Shown piece after piece: positions 33,831 through 44,958 of a stretch of DNA of 64,000 nucleotides. The position numbers and the translations under genes are program-made. Each line of letters begins with the position of its first letter. Within the stretch, counting starts at the first letter, position 1. Source of the stretch: Escherichia coli (lineage in GTDB: Bacteria > Pseudomonadota > Gammaproteobacteria > Enterobacterales > Enterobacteriaceae); the NCBI RefSeq assembly GCF_030013205.1, contig NZ_CP122648.1; one strand, 5' to 3'. The notes beneath the pieces were generated by a model, which saw nothing but the letters and a program-made list of their open reading frames with translations, made no database searches and was not told the DNA's origin.

Positions 33831-33878
33831 TCAGGGGAAGGTAAAAAAGAATGCGAAGAAAAACGGTGTGTGTTTCAT
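33831..33878 (-). CDS. pheL: pheA leader peptide PheL (15 aa, Phe-rich)
   Basis: Reverse complement reads ATGAAACACACACCGTTTTTCTTCGCATTCTTTTTTACCTTCCCCTGA (MKHTPFFFAFFFTFP). Confidence 0.9.
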   Translation of the reverse strand: MKHTPFFFAFFFTFP

Positions 33879-33935
33879 GTTTGTTTCCTTAAGTGACTTT
33901 AGTACAGTACCCGTACTGTTTTCACGCTGTCAACA

Positions 33936-37667: not shown

Positions 37668-37989
37668 GAAACCAGAACATGCACACACAAAAAAACCGCT
37701 TGCCATGCCGTAATCAGTCAGGTTACATTTCCGCTGCACCTCATAAAACGGGTGCCGGGATTCTCAACCCGATACAGAGCAAAGCGCATAACCGCGCCAG
37801 CGGTTTTTTTGTGCGTACTGTATTGCCACGTCTTTTTCGCGTCAGAATTATGGCGGGGCGTACGGGGCCGACTTCGGTCGGGCCGGATTCTTTGCTCTCC
37901 GGTGTTGAGAACCCTGTACGTCTCGCCACCCCGAGATTCTCAACTCTGGATGGTGAGTTATTTCTATCACCGAGCAAAGAGGCCACACC

Positions 37990-38220
37990 ATGGCAAACCG
38001 CAAACAGCACCGCGCATACGCTGCGCGTCGTCACATCCAGACTGAAATCAACCGCAGACTTTCCCGCGCATTCCGCGTCGCTAAAATCATGCACATCAAT
38101 ATGCTGCATGAGCGTAGCTGCGAACTTTCAAACCTCTATTCATCCGCTGTTTTCAGCTATCTGGCGGATGATCTGCGCGAGCTTCAGCAGCTCTTCCAGC
38201 AGCAAAACAAACCCCATTAA
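37990..38220 (+). CDS. Hypothetical small basic protein
   Basis: 76-aa ORF MANRKQHRAYAARRHIQTEINRRLSRAF...; preferred over the overlapping Ser-rich 205-aa ORF. Confidence 0.35.
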   Translation: MANRKQHRAYAARRHIQTEINRRLSRAFRVAKIMHINMLHERSCELSNLYSSAVFSYLADDLRELQQLFQQQNKPH

Positions 38221-38292: not shown

Positions 38293-38682
38293 ATGATTGA
38301 CGCTCATGACTTCACAAGATGGGTGCGCACACAGGACACCCGTCTGGCTCCCGTTCTTCAGGGATTATTTGATCTCTACATCCGTGGTCGTGACAACAGA
38401 GCACGCACCACAAAACCGGAGAATGCAGACACCCTTTATTTCACAGTAGACGACTGCTACCGCGTGGACTTCACACCACACGGGCTGGCGTTGCACTGCC
38501 TGACACCACACGGCGAATCACTACTGGCGTATTACGACTCCCCGGCCTCCGTATTTGCGGCAATGCTGGCGCATCGCACTGCTGGCGGGTGTGCCTCGCT
38601 GAGTGAATACACCGCTGAATTTGACCGCCTTTCCGCCATCTTCTCGCAGGAGTGGCAGCGCGTGACGGGATACCAGCCATGA
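38293..38682 (+). CDS. Hypothetical protein immediately upstream of gpA (P2 gpB position)
   Basis: 129-aa ORF; stop overlaps the gpA start. Confidence 0.45.
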   Translation: MIDAHDFTRWVRTQDTRLAPVLQGLFDLYIRGRDNRARTTKPENADTLYFTVDDCYRVDFTPHGLALHCLTPHGESLLAYYDSPASVFAAMLAHRTAGGCASLSEYTAEFDRLSAIFSQEWQRVTGYQP

Positions 38683-41504
38683 GTGAGTTTGCATGGAGCT
38701 GGAATGAACCACGACCAGCCATTGATCCGGCCAGATTTACGGAGCGCAGGCAGGAAACTGAAACCGACTTGCAACGCGCCATCCGTTACTACCTTGAGGC
38801 GGACAAAAAGGCCCGGGAAGAACAGGAAGCGAAGGAGGAAGCCTTTTTCGCACAATCCGCCATGGGTAAAAAACTCATGGCATCCCTTGAGGAAGCCGGA
38901 CAGCGTGAAAAGCTGGCACAGAGCATCATCAGTAAGCGCCGGGCAACAGAACAAGACCCAGTAGCCCGTGCCTTTGCCACACTAAAGGCACTACCTGTTT
39001 ATCTGCGTGAACCACTGAGCCGCCACCTCTCTTTCCTGCGCAAAAAACAGGAAGCCGATCGCCAGAAAGGCAAAAAGAGCTGGCAGGCGGAACGCTATGC
39101 ACGCGGAACCCTGCGCAAAATATTCGAACGTCTAGATCGCACTGACGGACGCTGGCTGACACCGGGTTATCGCTCCCTTGCCGGGCGCGAACGCCTGGAC
39201 GATTTGCTTTACCTGCCGCAGCTCAACAAGCACCAGATACAGACGCTGGCCACCATGACCGCGGCGATGTTCAGCAGCACCTTCGAAACACTCTGCGATG
39301 GCTTTGGTGCCAGAGATGGCGAGCTGACCATGGATGTAATGTTGAAGGCTTACCGGATGCTGGCTCGTATCGCATTACGCCTGCACATCATGCCGCCACA
39401 TTACGAAGCCCTGAACAAGAGCGAACCGGATACGGAACTGCTGCCGGGCGCAATCCTTCGCCTGACCTGTGCGGACTGGTGGAAACGCAAACTGTGGCTG
39501 TTACGTTGCGAGTGGAGAGAAGAACAACTCCGCGCCGCCTGTCTGGTTTCCAGAAAAACATCACCCTATCTGAGCCAGGACGCGTTAAGCGAGTTTCGCG
39601 CACAGCGCGAGAAAACACGCGATTTCCTGAAAAGTTTCATGCTGGAAAATGAAGACGGGTTCACGATTGATCTCGAGACGGTGTATTACGCGGGAGTAAG
39701 TAACCCGGTTCACCGTAAGGCAGAAATGATGGCCACCATGAAGGGACTGGAACTTCTGGCCGAAGCCCGTGGCGACAGAGCGGTGTTTCTGACTGTCACC
39801 TGCCCGTCAAAATACCACGCAACAACGGAGAACGGTCATCCGAATCCCAAATGGAACGGGGCCACCATGCGCGACTCCAGCGATTACCTGGTTAACACGT
39901 TTTTTGCGGCGGTCCGCAAGAAACTGAACCGCGACGGCCTGCGCTGGTATGGCATCCGCACGGTGGAGCCTCACCATGACGGCACCGTGCACTGGCATAT
40001 GATGGTCTTTGCCCATCCGGAAGAAATCGACACCATTGTGTCCCACACCCGCGATATTGCCATTCAGGAAGATCGTCACGAGCTGGGCGATGATATTACT
40101 CCGCGCTTTAAGGCGGAGTATGTAGACGGCTCAAAAGGCACGCCAACCAGCTACATCGCCACCTACATCGGAAAGAACCTGGACAGCCGCGCCGTGGATG
40201 GCATCGACCCGAAAACAGGCAAACCACGCGTTGACCACGAAACCGGAAAATCAATGGCCGAGAGCGTGGAGCGCGCCATCGGCTGGGCGCGCCTTCACCG
40301 GGTCCGCCAGTTCCAGTTCTTTGGCATCCCATCCCGTCAGGTGTGGCGTGAACTGCGCCGCCTTGCCAGCCAGATGGCACGCAACCCGGAAGGCCCGCAA
40401 CGGCTGAAGGATGACGCAATGGACGCGGTTCTTGCTGCCGCTGATGCCGGATGTTTTGCCACCTACATTGAGAAACAGGGCGGCGTACTTGTTCCACGCA
40501 AAGACTACCTGATTCGCACCGCCTACGACCTCGCAGATGAGCTGAACGATTACGGCGAACAGAGCGTACAGATTTACGGGATCTGGTCACCACTCATCGG
40601 GGAATCCTCCCGTGTGTGCACGCACCCGGATAACTGGAAGCTGGTAAGACGTAAACCGGAAGCGGAAGACAGCACCCGCGAAAATGGTTTTGACCTTCAG
40701 GGCGGCCCTGCCGCCCCTTGGACTCGTGGCAATAACTGTCCCCGTGTACAGGAAGCAGGCAACAGCGGGACAGAACTGTCGGAAGAGCAACCAACACCGT
40801 GGCCGCAGATCCCTGACGGCGTTGATGTGGATGAATGGATGCGCTCACTGAAACGGCACGAACGCCGGGCGCTGATGCGTTCGCTGCGTGACAAACAGGC
40901 AAAAAACAGCAGTGATGAAATGCAGAGCTGGACACAGAGCCGCAAACAGCAGCGGCCTTTGCCTGATAACCACGAATTACTCGCTAAAGAATGGCGGGAG
41001 TCTGCCGAATCTCTCGGCCTGCATATCGGTGAACAGCAGATGCAGCACCTGTTACGGGGCGGCAGCCTGTACGTTGACGGCAGCATCATTGCACCGCAGG
41101 GATTTGAAATTGTACGCAAACCGGATACCCGCCCGGACAGCCGAATCACGCAGCTCTGGCAGCGCCTGAGCCGTAATCATGGCGTAAGCAGCACGGAGAT
41201 CCGCCATAACCCGGTCGCCAGCTATCTGACACAGCTGGGGGCATCAGACCCTGAAGCCGCCGCACGCCTGGCATCCACACTTCAGCAGGACCAGAACACC
41301 ATGAAAACCCCCGTTACCGTGCTTTCTGACATGCTGCGCGCCATCCGTGACGCAGAGCACGCACAGAGAATCAGTGAAACAACTGAACGCGCCCGCCGCA
41401 AAGCAGACCTGCTGCGGGGTGGCCTGATCAGTGGAAACAAAAAACAGACAGAAACGGGATTCACAAATCCCGTAAATGAGCAAAAAACGTGCCGCGATGT
41501 ATGA
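38679..41504 (+). CDS. A: Rolling-circle replication initiator (P2 gpA-like endonuclease)
   Basis: HUH-type motif ...GTVHWHMMVF... and catalytic-tyrosine region ...SYIATYIGKN...; about 940 aa. Confidence 0.8.
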   Translation: MSEFAWSWNEPRPAIDPARFTERRQETETDLQRAIRYYLEADKKAREEQEAKEEAFFAQSAMGKKLMASLEEAGQREKLAQSIISKRRATEQDPVARAFATLKALPVYLREPLSRHLSFLRKKQEADRQKGKKSWQAERYARGTLRKIFERLDRTDGRWLTPGYRSLAGRERLDDLLYLPQLNKHQIQTLATMTAAMFSSTFETLCDGFGARDGELTMDVMLKAYRMLARIALRLHIMPPHYEALNKSEPDTELLPGAILRLTCADWWKRKLWLLRCEWREEQLRAACLVSRKTSPYLSQDALSEFRAQREKTRDFLKSFMLENEDGFTIDLETVYYAGVSNPVHRKAEMMATMKGLELLAEARGDRAVFLTVTCPSKYHATTENGHPNPKWNGATMRDSSDYLVNTFFAAVRKKLNRDGLRWYGIRTVEPHHDGTVHWHMMVFAHPEEIDTIVSHTRDIAIQEDRHELGDDITPRFKAEYVDGSKGTPTSYIATYIGKNLDSRAVDGIDPKTGKPRVDHETGKSMAESVERAIGWARLHRVRQFQFFGIPSRQVWRELRRLASQMARNPEGPQRLKDDAMDAVLAAADAGCFATYIEKQGGVLVPRKDYLIRTAYDLADELNDYGEQSVQIYGIWSPLIGESSRVCTHPDNWKLVRRKPEAEDSTRENGFDLQGGPAAPWTRGNNCPRVQEAGNSGTELSEEQPTPWPQIPDGVDVDEWMRSLKRHERRALMRSLRDKQAKNSSDEMQSWTQSRKQQRPLPDNHELLAKEWRESAESLGLHIGEQQMQHLLRGGSLYVDGSIIAPQGFEIVRKPDTRPDSRITQLWQRLSRNHGVSSTEIRHNPVASYLTQLGASDPEAAARLASTLQQDQNTMKTPVTVLSDMLRAIRDAEHAQRISETTERARRKADLLRGGLISGNKKQTETGFTNPVNEQKTCRDV

Positions 41505-41549
41505 AGCGCGCACAAAACAGGCAAAAGCGGGATTCCAGAATCCCGTAAA
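41454..41549. repeat. Two palindromic repeats (GGGATT-N-AATCCCGTAAA) about 73 bp apart, spanning the gpA 3' end and the parM upstream region
   Basis: ACGGGATTCACAAATCCCGTAAA and GCGGGATTCCAGAATCCCGTAAA seen directly (approximate coordinates). Confidence 0.5.
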
Positions 41550-41580
41550 CGGTTAATTAATCAACATAAGGAAAATCGAC

Positions 41581-42540
41581 ATGAAAATTTGTATCGACGA
41601 CGGCTCCACCAACATCAAGCTGGCATGGACTGAGAACGGCGAACGCCGCAACGCCATCAGCCCGAACAGCTTCAAGTCGGAATGGTCTGCGCCGTTCGGT
41701 GGCTCGCAGCCTGCGAACTACATGCTTGATGGCGTGCGCTATGGTTTTGATCCGGTCAGCGATCGCTTTGTCCAGACGACCGACACGCAATACCAGTACA
41801 GCGATGTGAATGTCATTGCCATTCATCACGCGCTGGTCAAATCAGGCATCACGCCTCAGGAGGTGGATGTGGTTGTCACCCTGCCACTGAGCGAGTATTT
41901 CGACACAAACGCACAGCCAGACATGGCCAACATCAACCGCAAAAAAGCGAACGTTATGCGCCCGGTGGAGTACCAGAACGGCGAAGCATTCACTATCCGT
42001 AACGTGCGGGTTATGCCTGAATCCATTCCGGCTGGTTTTAAGGCACTGGCTGACATGAGTCCGTTTGAATCCCTGCTGATTGTGGATTTGGGCGGAACCA
42101 CGCTGGATGTGGCAAAGGTTCAGGGGCAACTGGCAGGTATCAGCCAGGTGTTTTGCGATCCACACGTAGGCGTTTCTCTGATGGCTGATGCCGTGCTGTC
42201 GGTGATGGCCACTAACGGTATGCGTACCAGTCACCACATCGCCAATACCATTATTGAGCACCGTCACGATGAAGCCTGGCTACGCCAGCACATTCACAAT
42301 GACGCGCATTACAACAGCCTGATGGCGGTTATTCGTGAAAAGGAGGAAACACTGAAACAACGCGTGATCCGCGCGCTGGCGGGTTTTTCGGGTTACGGGC
42401 GGGTGATGGTTGTAGGTGGAGGAGCGGAGATTGTGGCACCCGCTATCCGCGAAGCCTGCGGAGTTAATGCGACTTTCATCGCGGACGGGGTGCCACAGTT
42501 TGCTCTGGTTAATGGGCTGTACGCAATGGACAAGGAGTAA
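41581..42540 (+). CDS. parM: ParM/StbA-type actin-like segregation ATPase
   Basis: MKICIDDGSTNIKLAWTENG...YSDVNVIAIHHAL...IVDLGGTTLDV...VMVVGGGAEI...; close to plasmid R1 ParM as recalled. Confidence 0.8.
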   Translation: MKICIDDGSTNIKLAWTENGERRNAISPNSFKSEWSAPFGGSQPANYMLDGVRYGFDPVSDRFVQTTDTQYQYSDVNVIAIHHALVKSGITPQEVDVVVTLPLSEYFDTNAQPDMANINRKKANVMRPVEYQNGEAFTIRNVRVMPESIPAGFKALADMSPFESLLIVDLGGTTLDVAKVQGQLAGISQVFCDPHVGVSLMADAVLSVMATNGMRTSHHIANTIIEHRHDEAWLRQHIHNDAHYNSLMAVIREKEETLKQRVIRALAGFSGYGRVMVVGGGAEIVAPAIREACGVNATFIADGVPQFALVNGLYAMDKE

Positions 42541-42544
42541 ATCA

Positions 42545-42859
42545 ATGACGACACCAACCAGACGGATAAGTTTCTATCTGAAGCCCGCCGTCGTCAAGAG
42601 CGAACGGGAGGCGTGCAGTTACCTCGACAGCCTGCCAGCCTCCGAACGCAGCCGCGCACAACGCGCGGCTTTTCTGGCCGGACTGGCTCTTATAAAACGC
42701 ATCCCCGCGTTGGCGTATTCGCTGGCAGAATGGTCAGAAGACGAAATAAGGATGCCACCGCTACCAGTACAGCCTGAAAAACCGGCGAAACCAGCAGCAG
42801 ACAGCGCCCCCCATATGCAGCAGGTGAAGAAGAATATTCAGGCGTTTTTTCCGAAGTGA
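42545..42859 (+). CDS. parR: ParR-type centromere-binding adaptor
   Basis: MTTPTRRISFYLKPAVVKSEREACSYLDSLPASERSRAQRAAFLAGLAL... resembles R1 ParR (ribbon-helix-helix N-terminus). Confidence 0.7.
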   Translation: MTTPTRRISFYLKPAVVKSEREACSYLDSLPASERSRAQRAAFLAGLALIKRIPALAYSLAEWSEDEIRMPPLPVQPEKPAKPAADSAPHMQQVKKNIQAFFPK

Positions 42860-42873
42860 AAACAGGAGTAACT

Positions 42874-43161
42874 ATGTCCACCATTACCAAAGAATGGTTA
42901 CAACGTAAAATCACAGAGTTTAAATCGTGGCGCGAAGACATCCCGTTCGGTCTTGATGAAGACGATCACAATATGTTAATCGCACTGGAAATCGCACTTG
43001 CATCACTGGAAGCAGAGCCAGTGGCATGGATGCACGCAAATAATCCTATTGGAATACCGGCGATAACAAGAAGTAAAGATGTTGCAGACAGCTGGCGCTC
43101 TAAGGGATGGAATGTATTGCCTCTTTATTCACTGACCCGCTCCATCAATTTATGCCATTAA
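42874..43161 (+). CDS. Hypothetical protein (cargo region)
   Basis: MSTITKEWLQRKITEFKSWREDIPFGLDEDDHNMLIALEIALA...; good Shine-Dalgarno (AGGAG). Confidence 0.4.
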   Translation: MSTITKEWLQRKITEFKSWREDIPFGLDEDDHNMLIALEIALASLEAEPVAWMHANNPIGIPAITRSKDVADSWRSKGWNVLPLYSLTRSINLCH

Positions 43162-43172
43162 TGGAAGTAATC

Positions 43173-43532
43173 ATGATGAAAGATAATTCCGGAAGCCAGC
43201 GTGCATCAGTTGCAGTTATGGTAATGATTAAATTTGTGAAACAGTACACCGGAAAGCCAATCTCGCTCCGGCAATTAAGCAAAGAAACCGTTTCACTGTC
43301 ATATCTGGAGCAAATATTCAGATATTTACGGGAAAGTAGCCTGGTAAAAGCCACACGCGGCCCGGGTGGTGGATATATCCCAACAAAAGAAAATTACAGT
43401 GTTGGTGATATTGTCCGGGCAATGAAATGTTCCGGATTATATACACAGCACGTTATTCTGGCTGCACTGGATAATATTTCTTTAACCAGCCTGCAGGAAG
43501 ACACAAATTATCAGTTGTCTGCCATTGAATAA
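43173..43532 (+). CDS. Rrf2-family (IscR/NsrR-like) transcriptional regulator, short form without a C-terminal Cys cluster
   Basis: ...ISLRQLSKETVSLSYLEQIFRYLRESSLVKATRGPGGGYIPTKENYSVGDIVRAM... (typical Rrf2 wing/HTH signature). Confidence 0.65.
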   Translation: MMKDNSGSQRASVAVMVMIKFVKQYTGKPISLRQLSKETVSLSYLEQIFRYLRESSLVKATRGPGGGYIPTKENYSVGDIVRAMKCSGLYTQHVILAALDNISLTSLQEDTNYQLSAIE

Positions 43533-43533
43533 G

Positions 43534-43580
43534 AAAACCCGGAACGGGTGCGCAAATTCTTTGTGCGCCCGTTCCGGGTT
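43534..43580 (-). terminator. Long stem-loop terminator (19-bp stem, two G-U wobbles) downstream of the ogr-like gene
   Basis: AACCCGGAACGGGTGCGCAAA-TTC-TTTGTGCGCCCGTTCCGGGTT; a U-rich tract follows on the minus-strand transcript (approximate coordinates). Confidence 0.6.
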
Positions 43581-43600
43581 GGACAAGCGAAGCGCGTCAG

Positions 43601-43858
43601 CTATCCGGCCTGCAACAACTCCAGAGCCATTTGTTTTTCTTCCGGACGCATCCGCTCAATCAACAGCTTTAACACACCATTCTCCAGCCCGCTGGGCACC
43701 AGTGTGTGCGAGTAGGTCAGATTCATCACCCAGGTATGTCCGCACTCGAGACGGGTGCAACGGTAATACACATCAGCAAACTGATCGGTTTTCCAGGCTG
43801 TTTTCTCAATCACTGCATGTGCACCGCAGCAATGACATCGCGCTTTCTGTCTGCGCAT
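43601..43858 (-). CDS. ogr: Ogr/Delta-family zinc-finger late-gene activator
   Basis: MRRQKARCHCCGAHAVIEK...YYRCTRLECGHTW... (C-x2-C ... C-x4-C). Confidence 0.7.
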   Translation of the reverse strand: MRRQKARCHCCGAHAVIEKTAWKTDQFADVYYRCTRLECGHTWVMNLTYSHTLVPSGLENGVLKLLIERMRPEEKQMALELLQAG

Positions 43859-43923: not shown

Positions 43924-44958
43924 TCACTCCGTGGATTCGTTAAATTCAAGAATAAATTCCACCTGCCCCAGCCGTCTGATATCCGGATCGCTGTTGATCC
44001 CCTCCATAATCAGACGGCGCATCGGAATAACCTCATCTCTGTAATATGCCTCGCGGGATTTCAGTGGGTCACCAAGCCCGGCCGTATTTGCGGGAATGAT
44101 GCCGGCAAGTCCGGGTGGAAAACGGTGCGCAACGAGCTGATCCTGGGCACTGATGGTTTTTATATTCAGGAACTCATCTTTTGTGCCTGAATCCCCGATA
44201 GGGATCACCTTAACGCCTTCTTTGTCTCCGCCCGGTATATTGATAAACATGGATTTAAAATTGCCCGCCCCTTTTGACGCCTCTATCTTTTTACGGAATT
44301 CCGCCTCGAGCTCGGGATCCATGTCCGGGTCAGTGGAATACAGGATATAACCAAGATGTGCGCCGTTCTTGTAATACTTGCGGCGAAAGCGGGTGGCATC
44401 CACATTCAGCATGGCGGATTCCATCCCGTGAATATAATCCGGGACACCGTAAACCTGCTGTTGCGGGTCATAAATGGCCACGAACACCACTTCGCCTGGC
44501 GGGTAAACGAGATCTTCCAGTGCTGCCTGCACAATCACCGTGCCACCCTCGTTGTTACGCCGCAGGTACAGAGAAGGTAACGTATGCAGGCGCACCACGC
44601 GACCGAAGCCATTGCGCACTTTAAGCAACCCCATATCCCCGAATATCAGCAGATTGGTTACTGCTGCCGCCATGGCGGCGTGTGTCATACCACCACCACC
44701 CCGAAAACCCTGCATGATCATATTGACGCGCGCACGCAATACCGCGCCGTGATACGGTGCGATATTGGACAACATGGCGAGATCCATGCGCTCAATTGGC
44801 GGCGTGTACCAGCCGTTATAGCCATCCCAGAGCGAGCCGTAATAACAGCCCCATGCAGCGACCGGTTCCGGGTCACCAAATTCAATAAACGTCATTTTGC
44901 TGGCTGTTTTTTTTGCCACGCCATCGTGTAACACGGGGTATTTTTTCTTTTTACTCAT
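43924..44958 (-). CDS. Q: Portal protein (P2 gpQ-like)
   Basis: 344-aa ORF MSKKKKYPVLHDGVAKKTASKMTFIEFGDPEPVAAWGCYYG...; size and position as in P2. Confidence 0.85.
   Translation of the reverse strand: MSKKKKYPVLHDGVAKKTASKMTFIEFGDPEPVAAWGCYYGSLWDGYNGWYTPPIERMDLAMLSNIAPYHGAVLRARVNMIMQGFRGGGGMTHAAMAAAVTNLLIFGDMGLLKVRNGFGRVVRLHTLPSLYLRRNNEGGTVIVQAALEDLVYPPGEVVFVAIYDPQQQVYGVPDYIHGMESAMLNVDATRFRRKYYKNGAHLGYILYSTDPDMDPELEAEFRKKIEASKGAGNFKSMFINIPGGDKEGVKVIPIGDSGTKDEFLNIKTISAQDQLVAHRFPPGLAGIIPANTAGLGDPLKSREAYYRDEVIPMRRLIMEGINSDPDIRRLGQVEFILEFNESTE

Follow-up and report, generated by a model that had tools for sequence, protein, structure and literature searches.

A probable ParMRC-type partition module in the replication region of P88-like prophages of Escherichia coli

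What use would a phage that integrates into its host's chromosome have for the kind of partition system found on low-copy plasmids? The question is raised by a 64,000-nucleotide stretch of E. coli DNA (contig NZ_CP122648.1 of assembly GCF_030013205.1; the whole stretch is called the window here, and all coordinates refer to it), in which a prophage carries genes for an actin-like ParM protein and a ParR-like adaptor immediately behind its replication gene. A preliminary description of this DNA had recognized an integrated P2-like prophage, and that assignment stands. The prophage is P88-like (genus Xuanwuvirus, family Peduoviridae) and is integrated beside pheA and pheL; host genes and the Phe leader (33754-33879) lie directly to the left of its integrase gene, and the host flank of the window matches E. 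coli K_EC180 at a constant offset. We consider it rather probable that parM and parR represent a genuine type II (ParMRC) module that acts on the circular phage genome while it is extrachromosomal, coupled to gpA-driven replication.

ParM and ParR behind the replication gene

The replication gene (38682-41504, + strand) encodes a gpA-type replication endonuclease of 940 residues, a rolling-circle initiator. Its annotation, like that of the ogr-like gene described below, was taken from a genome that is 100% identical to ours over the 2.2-kb par region (window positions 41400 to 43600), and the gpA orthologues of prophages in other genera contain the Phage_GPA Pfam domain. Four genes in the same orientation follow on the 3′ side of gpA, namely, parM, parR, and two short genes that we call orf95 and rrf2.

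The parM gene (41581-42540, + strand) encodes a full-length actin-like ATPase of 319 residues, identified by Pfam, by comparison with R1 structures, and by BLASTP. The protein matches the StbA_N family with an E value of 2.9e-82, the C-terminal domain of ParM with an E value of 2.1e-68, and the solved structures of R1 ParM with an E value of 7e-93, and it is 47% identical over its full length to the StbA/ParM protein of plasmid R1 and of an IncF plasmid. In the alignment, the nucleotide-binding stretches DDGSTNIK, MPESIPAG, DLGGTTLD, and GGGAE are the same in the phage and R1 proteins, showing that this member of the ParM/StbA family of actin-fold ATPases has kept its nucleotide-binding motifs intact. 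The full-length open reading frame is present in 82 of 83 related loci, and the ratio of nonsynonymous to synonymous substitution rates (dN/dS) is 0.055 over 67 distinct alleles. The gene is under strong purifying selection.

The start of parR (42545-42859, + strand) is found 5 nucleotides after the parM stop codon, so that a gene for a small adaptor lies immediately 3′ of parM, as in other type II systems such as that of R1. The predicted product, a centromere-binding adaptor of the ParR/StbB type with 104 residues, matches the Pfam family Plasmid_stab_B (PF10784; E value, 1e-23), and a profile built from five phage ParR sequences matches the structure of pB171 ParR (2jd3) with an E value of 4e-11. 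The preliminary description, which had likened both proteins to those of plasmid R1, was right to call them ParM and ParR homologues. ParR consists of a conserved N-terminal domain, a hypervariable linker (residues ~67 to 90), and a C-terminal tail with the sequence N-x4-F-P, which is invariant across five genera although the linker is hypervariable. This tail resembles the KKNAMKLIN end of R1 ParR; a multiple alignment placed the two apart. In the N-terminal domain, E. coli and Plesiomonas share an identical stretch, RRISFYLKP, for which Hafnia has RRVSFYLKP. ParR evolves faster than ParM, with a dN/dS of 0.28 for its 66 N-terminal codons.

The parR gene occurs as two allelic classes, of which the copy in the window belongs to the minority class: its product is only ~52% identical to P88 ParR, while ParM is 99% identical to its P88 counterpart. 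More generally, ParM is 98 to 100% identical across the E. coli loci that we compared (L004 to L083), while ParR splits into the two classes. Megablast matches between our sequence and most of its relatives stop inside parR, at query positions 1305 to 1343, which suggests that recombination at the hotspot has its boundary within this gene.

As to the origin of the module, no plasmid ParM is more than ~52% identical to the phage protein. Its nearest relatives outside the P88-like group, at 54 to 63% identity, belong to P2-like prophages of Plesiomonas, Hafnia, Serratia, and Enterobacter, and between these genera ParM is at least as well conserved as the portal protein, the terminase, and gpA. 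The distance to the plasmid proteins argues for an old phage lineage rather than a recent acquisition from a plasmid. A ParM protein with 49% identity is also found, together with a ParR, on a Dickeya chromosome (L091, 8001-9373), where the pair belongs to an integrated conjugative element that also has TraG_N and TraU genes; this element is a further example of type II partition genes carried by an integrating element.

The interval between the replication and portal genes is where P2 carries accessory genes, and the preliminary description had placed the cassette in this cargo slot. We therefore looked at how parMR is distributed. It directly follows gpA in 14 of 14 P88-like phage records. 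Among 5,426 complete E. coli genomes, parM is present in 1,302, about a quarter, at 1,441 places, all of them chromosomal (1,439) except for 2 plasmid-borne copies. With a threshold of at least 80% coverage, parM was detected in 1,278 genomes versus 1,319 for this type of gpA (~97%), so that the two genes nearly always occur together. The full arrangement with orf95 and rrf2 was found in only 36 genomes, and the 52 loci in which the sequence reaches the portal gene contain 26 unrelated types of cargo, 1.0 to 2.9 kb in length, between parR and that gene. Base composition follows the same division, with G+C contents of 0.53 to 0.58 for parMR, 0.55 to 0.62 for gpA, and 0.42 to 0.46 for orf95 and rrf2. 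The order gpA-parM-parR-cargo-(ogr)-portal recurs in the P2-like prophages of the four other genera. In our phage collection, parMR had matches only in P88-like records and in the P1-like phage D6; P2 and 186 do not have the module.

The fixed presence of parMR, its backbone-like composition, its position across genera, and the conservation of ParM together argue that the module has been inherited vertically and that the hotspot starts after parR. Judged by sequence comparison, parMR belongs to the replication region of P88-like phages as an old, fixed component and not as swappable cargo, and it marks the left boundary of the defence hotspot. The term cargo is thus accurate for orf95 and rrf2, which are variable in presence, and not for parMR, which shows neither variable presence nor a composition unlike that of the backbone. 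The preliminary description had also considered that the cassette might be a standard feature of all close relatives with a known role other than partition; the first part is correct, and no nonpartition role is known. Right after parR, a Serratia prophage has HicA/HicB (L087, 9450-10084) and an Enterobacter prophage has a KAP-family NTPase (L090, 9411-10757), which fits a toxin-antitoxin or defence hotspot that begins at this point.

Given this neighborhood, the integrated prophage might instead express ParM and ParR in the lysogen, where they would work in trans or on chromosomal DNA. They could interfere with incoming related phages or plasmids through partition incompatibility or exclusion, serve in some other form of defence, or help to segregate the host chromosome. 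Besides the proximity of the known P2 defence hotspot, the existence of two ParR classes and the dN/dS of 0.28 could be taken as signs of diversifying pressure, and a conserved box upstream of parM, described below, could belong to a promoter of its own. However, the fixed presence and backbone-like G+C content of parMR are unlike those of hotspot cargo, and a protein as extremely conserved as ParM is better explained by a mechanical role than by an arms race. None of the four proteins encoded after gpA had a PADLOC match at E values up to 0.1, and a co-opted defence function, as raised in the preliminary description, thus found no support in similarity to anti-phage systems. Cross-talk with plasmids is unlikely, since their ParM proteins are at most ~52% identical to that of the phage. 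We find a role of this kind quite unlikely. Exclusion of co-resident prophages by incompatibility was considered separately and is unsupported: in a small sample of five informative pairs, prophages residing in a single genome can share the same ParR class or even an identical ParR, with no sign of mutual exclusion.

Candidate ParR sites and transcription of the module

A type II system requires a DNA site for its adaptor, and the preliminary description had pointed to palindromes upstream of parM. These are real and nonrandom. Candidate site 1 (41438-41476), a 39-nucleotide repeat unit inside the 3′ end of gpA, has the dyad core ACGGGATT-N4-AATCCCGT (41454-41473). Candidate site 2 (41511-41549), a second unit of the same length with the core CGGGATTC-N2-GAATCCCG (41528-41545), is located 73 bp from site 1; the parM start follows ~35 bp downstream. 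The two units are direct repeats with 82% identity, and their dyads have the form CGGGA-N9-TCCCG. The 64 kb contain exactly two occurrences of the sequence GGGATTNNNNAATCCC, both in these repeats, compared with ~0.004 exact matches that we calculated to be expected from base frequencies; similarly, the only exact matches to GGGATT-N4-AATCCC in the window are the two repeat cores.

We compared E. coli, Plesiomonas, and Hafnia in an alignment of the parM upstream region. The invariant positions are the GGGA...CCC cores, some of the A-rich positions between them, a ATTAATCAA box (41556-41564, + strand), and the ribosome-binding site, with the Shine-Dalgarno sequence AAGGAA at 41568-41573 (+ strand). 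The ATTAATCAA box, just upstream of the Shine-Dalgarno sequence, is flanked by divergent sequence; it may represent a -10-like element or a protein-binding site, and a scan for consensus promoters called none at the box. The spacing between the sites is 72 to 73 bp in E. coli and Plesiomonas and ~71 to 72 bp in Hafnia, as read from the sequence. Site 1 lies within the last gpA codons in both E. coli and Plesiomonas, where it encodes different residues, and in Hafnia it is read in another frame. That the core is kept while frame and residues change indicates that the constraint acts on the DNA. In the Serratia branch, the repeats upstream of parM are different.

The repeats can also form hairpins of -10 to -11.5 kcal/mol in E. 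coli, which suggests an alternative in which they are not a centromere but tandem intrinsic terminators for leftward transcription, shielding gene A from antisense read-through. On the minus strand, the hairpins of both E. coli repeats (-10.2 kcal/mol) are followed by T-rich tails, and the terminator scan called them terminator-like. This potential is lost in the other genera: the Plesiomonas and Hafnia sequences have stems of ~4 to 7 pairs with loops mostly of ~10 nucleotides and fold no better than shuffled sequences, although half-sites and spacing are kept. In E. coli itself, many variants break the symmetry of the palindrome with no compensating change, and no leftward gene is found upstream of the repeats before the putative terminator at 43538-43578. 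A terminator function is therefore very unlikely. The conservation of cores and spacing, while flanks, frame, and hairpin potential change, favors a protein-binding dyad over an RNA hairpin or terminator.

The cis-acting element would thus be a conserved pair of dyads, with a layout nearer to the four repeats of srpC, the centromere of the SrpMRC system, than to R1 parC, and ParR is the candidate ligand of these dyads. Both ParR classes have the stretch RRISFYLKP in common, consistent with a core site that has stayed the same. An iteron array of the R1 type was considered as well, as the A-rich tracts around the dyads are suggestive by eye, and was rejected with an R1 weight matrix.

With respect to transcription, parM and parR have the same orientation as gene A, and a terminator scan detected no terminator on the + strand between gpA and parM. 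For these reasons, the simplest reading is that both are probably cotranscribed with gene A. Upstream of the gpA unit, a terminator-like site is present at 37790-37805, and Rfam identified isrK (62.8 bits; 37736-37810, + strand) and a C4 antisense RNA (78.5 bits; 37846-37933, + strand). Between these matches and gpA lies a gene for a "derepression protein" of 76 residues (37990-38220). The arrangement suggests an anti-repressor unit controlled by antisense RNA in the manner of P1 and P7, which may head the gpA-parMR transcript too. We found no LexA box (CTGT-N8-ACAG) upstream of the gpA unit.

Proposed action on the extrachromosomal phage genome

These observations can be assembled into a mechanism. 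parM and parR would be expressed together with replication gene A once the genome is extrachromosomal, i.e., after infection or after induction and excision. ParR dimers would then bind the two CGGGA-N9-TCCCG dyads, one at the end of gene A and the other in the parM leader, with site 2 perhaps doubling as an autoregulatory operator. The conserved C-terminal tail of ParR would capture filaments of ATP-bound ParM, and the growing filaments would push apart the circular phage genomes that arise from gpA-driven rolling-circle replication. The phage might benefit through support of replication, through distribution of its genomes to daughter cells prior to integration, or through retention of the excised circle. 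Two precedents in which a comparable function was tested support such a role, namely, AlpAC of prophage CGP3 and SrpMRC of the SXT/R391 integrative and conjugative elements (ICEs).

The homology of the module to a plasmid stabilization system also invites another proposal, according to which P88-like phages are facultative phage-plasmids: instead of integrating, they could remain for many generations in the form of a low-copy circular episome under active partitioning. The preliminary description had named a phage-plasmid lifestyle as one of two possibilities, and the same idea was proposed by Rousset et al. in 2022 (PMC9122126). One record may be an example: NZ_CP148288.1 (pZ1323PEC0009-2), a 34,461-bp circular "plasmid," consists of an entire P88-like phage, joined into a circle where its integrase and methylase ends meet. 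It was deposited (positions 1 to 34461) from E. coli Z1323PEC0009 as a nonmobilizable circular plasmid, integrase included. However, in this lone circular record the assembly may simply have captured a replicative form after induction or excision, and all but two of the 1,441 parM places are chromosomal. A search for an unbroken attP junction at a single place found it in none of the 5,426 genomes, a search that is blind to circular records starting at the junction. All elements examined have the integrase gene (the window, pZ1323PEC0009-2, and the Plesiomonas prophage, as well as K_EC180, in which it is frameshifted), and the gpA rolling-circle initiator is the only replication protein seen, with no plasmid-type theta replicon in the annotation. 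The survey thus does not show a prophage that is maintained outside the chromosome, and it speaks against the lifestyle that had been suggested. That P88-like phages switch between episomal and integrated states, with gpA-driven low-copy circles segregated by ParMRC, is in our judgment unlikely. If they did, this would add a new lifestyle to those described for P2-like phages, and the 34.5-kb circular record would be an example of it.

Several observations also count against the action on extrachromosomal phage DNA that we favor. Our literature search found no experiment on ParMR in any P2-like phage, only passing mentions. The promoter scan revealed no convincing sigma-70 promoter in the stretch from gpA to parM. 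The upstream region has two dyads, i.e., four half-sites, a much smaller number than in R1 parC with its ten iterons. When a weight matrix derived from those ten was applied, it gave only 1 to 2 matches in 41420-41570, and this region was not among the densest bins of the window. Across 82 loci, the ParR class (A, B1, or B2) did not covary with the dyad sequence, making the assignment of ParR to the dyads indirect. Finally, P2, 186, and other P2-like phages thrive without the module, so that its benefit may be small.

Neighboring genes and known systems

The two genes between parR and the late genes differ from parMR in their distribution, as described above. The first of them, orf95 (42874-43161, + strand), is variable cargo that encodes a small phage protein of 95 residues. 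The protein matches PHROGs 660 and 60, both of unknown function, and has no match in Pfam, NCBIfam, or PADLOC. The second, rrf2 (43173-43532, + strand), is variable cargo as well and encodes a truncated Rrf2-like winged-helix protein of 119 residues. The preliminary description had listed the two genes in the opposite order. Residues 8 to 88 of the Rrf2-like protein match positions 2 to 85 of the 132 positions of the Pfam Rrf2 model (PF02082; E value, 6e-13), and the protein also matches phrog_24072. It thus has the N-terminal winged helix-turn-helix of the family. It does not have the full-length architecture, which includes a C-terminal dimerization helix and, in Fe-S members, three cysteine ligands: a single cysteine is present, and the score of 53.5 bits is below the NCBIfam cutoff for the Rrf2 superfamily (73.3).

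Homologues of the Rrf2-like protein are rare, with ~211 near-identical sequences and a single relative at 51% identity. The gene for the latter adjoins a DnaC/IstB-like gene and has no orf95 partner, and hence there is no evidence that orf95 and rrf2 work as one system. The sole consensus-like sigma-70 site in this interval, TTACCA-16-TAAAAT (42884-42911, + strand), is located just inside the start of orf95 and could drive rrf2 alone; such sites were no more frequent than expected by chance in the scan.

A long inverted repeat of ~19 pairs, read from the sequence, follows at 43538-43578, between rrf2 and the ogr-like gene, and the scan called a minus-strand terminator-like site at 43549-43537. 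The repeat is likely a terminator that closes both the rightward unit and the leftward ogr unit. The ogr/Delta-like zinc-finger gene (43601-43798, - strand) marks the right edge of the variable slot. It lies next to the portal gene (43924-44958, - strand), and the portal and terminase genes downstream of it are on the opposite strand to parMR. An Ogr_Delta gene adjoins the portal gene in the Plesiomonas and Hafnia prophages too. Close relatives do not all have this late activator gene in one place: the ogr gene of pZ1323PEC0009-2 is close to hok and com at the opposite genome end, and the P88 annotation shows none next to the portal gene.

K_EC180 (NZ_CP062203.1, 11579-32482) contains the same prophage in a degraded state, with a frameshifted integrase gene and with the ogr-like gene followed directly by tail fiber genes, the head genes being absent. 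Its parMR, orf95, and rrf2 are 100% identical to those of the window despite this degradation.

The presence of parMR in P88-like prophages is an already catalogued feature and ordinary for the lineage. In more than 1,300 complete E. coli genomes, parM and parR are already named by NCBI PGAP. A putative partitioning system was attributed to roughly one in four P2-like phages by Rousset et al., who also speculated on plasmid maintenance and listed this exact arrangement, with the same protein accessions, in their Table S5A, where partitioning genes are counted among the systems of the interval (PMC9122126). The PhiSM paper names a partitioning protein as a fitness factor. Our analysis adds that the module is core, old, and under purifying selection, that it forms the left edge of the hotspot, and that it is preceded by a specific, conserved pair of candidate sites. 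What emerges is a predicted actin-like machine for moving DNA, fixed beside the replication gene of a phage lineage that about one in four E. coli strains carry.

Compared with the cargo of the P2 gpA-gpQ hotspot, such as old, tin, and other defence genes, the module occupies the same interval between gpA and the portal gene, where orf95 and rrf2 behave as cargo does. parMR differs from such cargo in being invariant in its lineage, in having the composition of the backbone, and in being conserved across genera.

In sequence, the module is of the kind represented by the ParMRC (StbA/StbB) systems of plasmids R1 and NR1. They have the same order, with a cis-acting site, in the phage a candidate one, followed by parM and parR, and, as noted above, their ParM is 47% identical to that of the phage. 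R1 ParR belongs to the same Pfam family and is ~37% identical in the N-terminal domain, and both ParR proteins end in a short conserved tail after a variable linker; the phage protein has 104 residues versus 117 in R1. In contrast to R1, a low-copy plasmid with theta replication, the phage module resides on an integrating P2-like phage behind a rolling-circle initiator. The sites differ as well: in R1 parC, ten 11-bp direct iterons flank the promoter, while the phage has two dyads, one of them inside a coding region.

The SrpMRC system of the SXT/R391 ICEs is expressed only upon activation of the ICE and stabilizes the excised element, and its centromere, srpC, consists of four short direct and inverted repeats (PMC4489591). 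It resembles the phage module in being a type II system on a normally integrated element whose circle is replicated by a rolling-circle enzyme, and its four repeats have a counterpart in the four half-sites of the phage. One difference is that the phage proteins are close homologues of R1 ParM and ParR, to which SrpM and SrpR are only distantly related; another is that the SXT/R391 elements are conjugative and not viral.

For the proposed role, the best functional analogue would be AlpAC of the Corynebacterium glutamicum prophage CGP3. AlpAC attaches the circular DNA of the phage to actin-like filaments and is needed for efficient phage replication; its induction comes early upon excision, and the adaptor has its sites (alpS) in the upstream region (PMC4446434). 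Both AlpAC and the P88-like module thus combine an actin-like protein with a DNA-binding adaptor on an integrated prophage. They differ in the subfamily of the actin-like protein, in the phylum of the host, and in the type of phage, and the function established by experiment in CGP3 is for the P88-like module one that we infer. If ParMR does organize the replication or carry-over of phage DNA, the precedents set by AlpAC and SrpMRC would extend to a common phage of enterobacteria.

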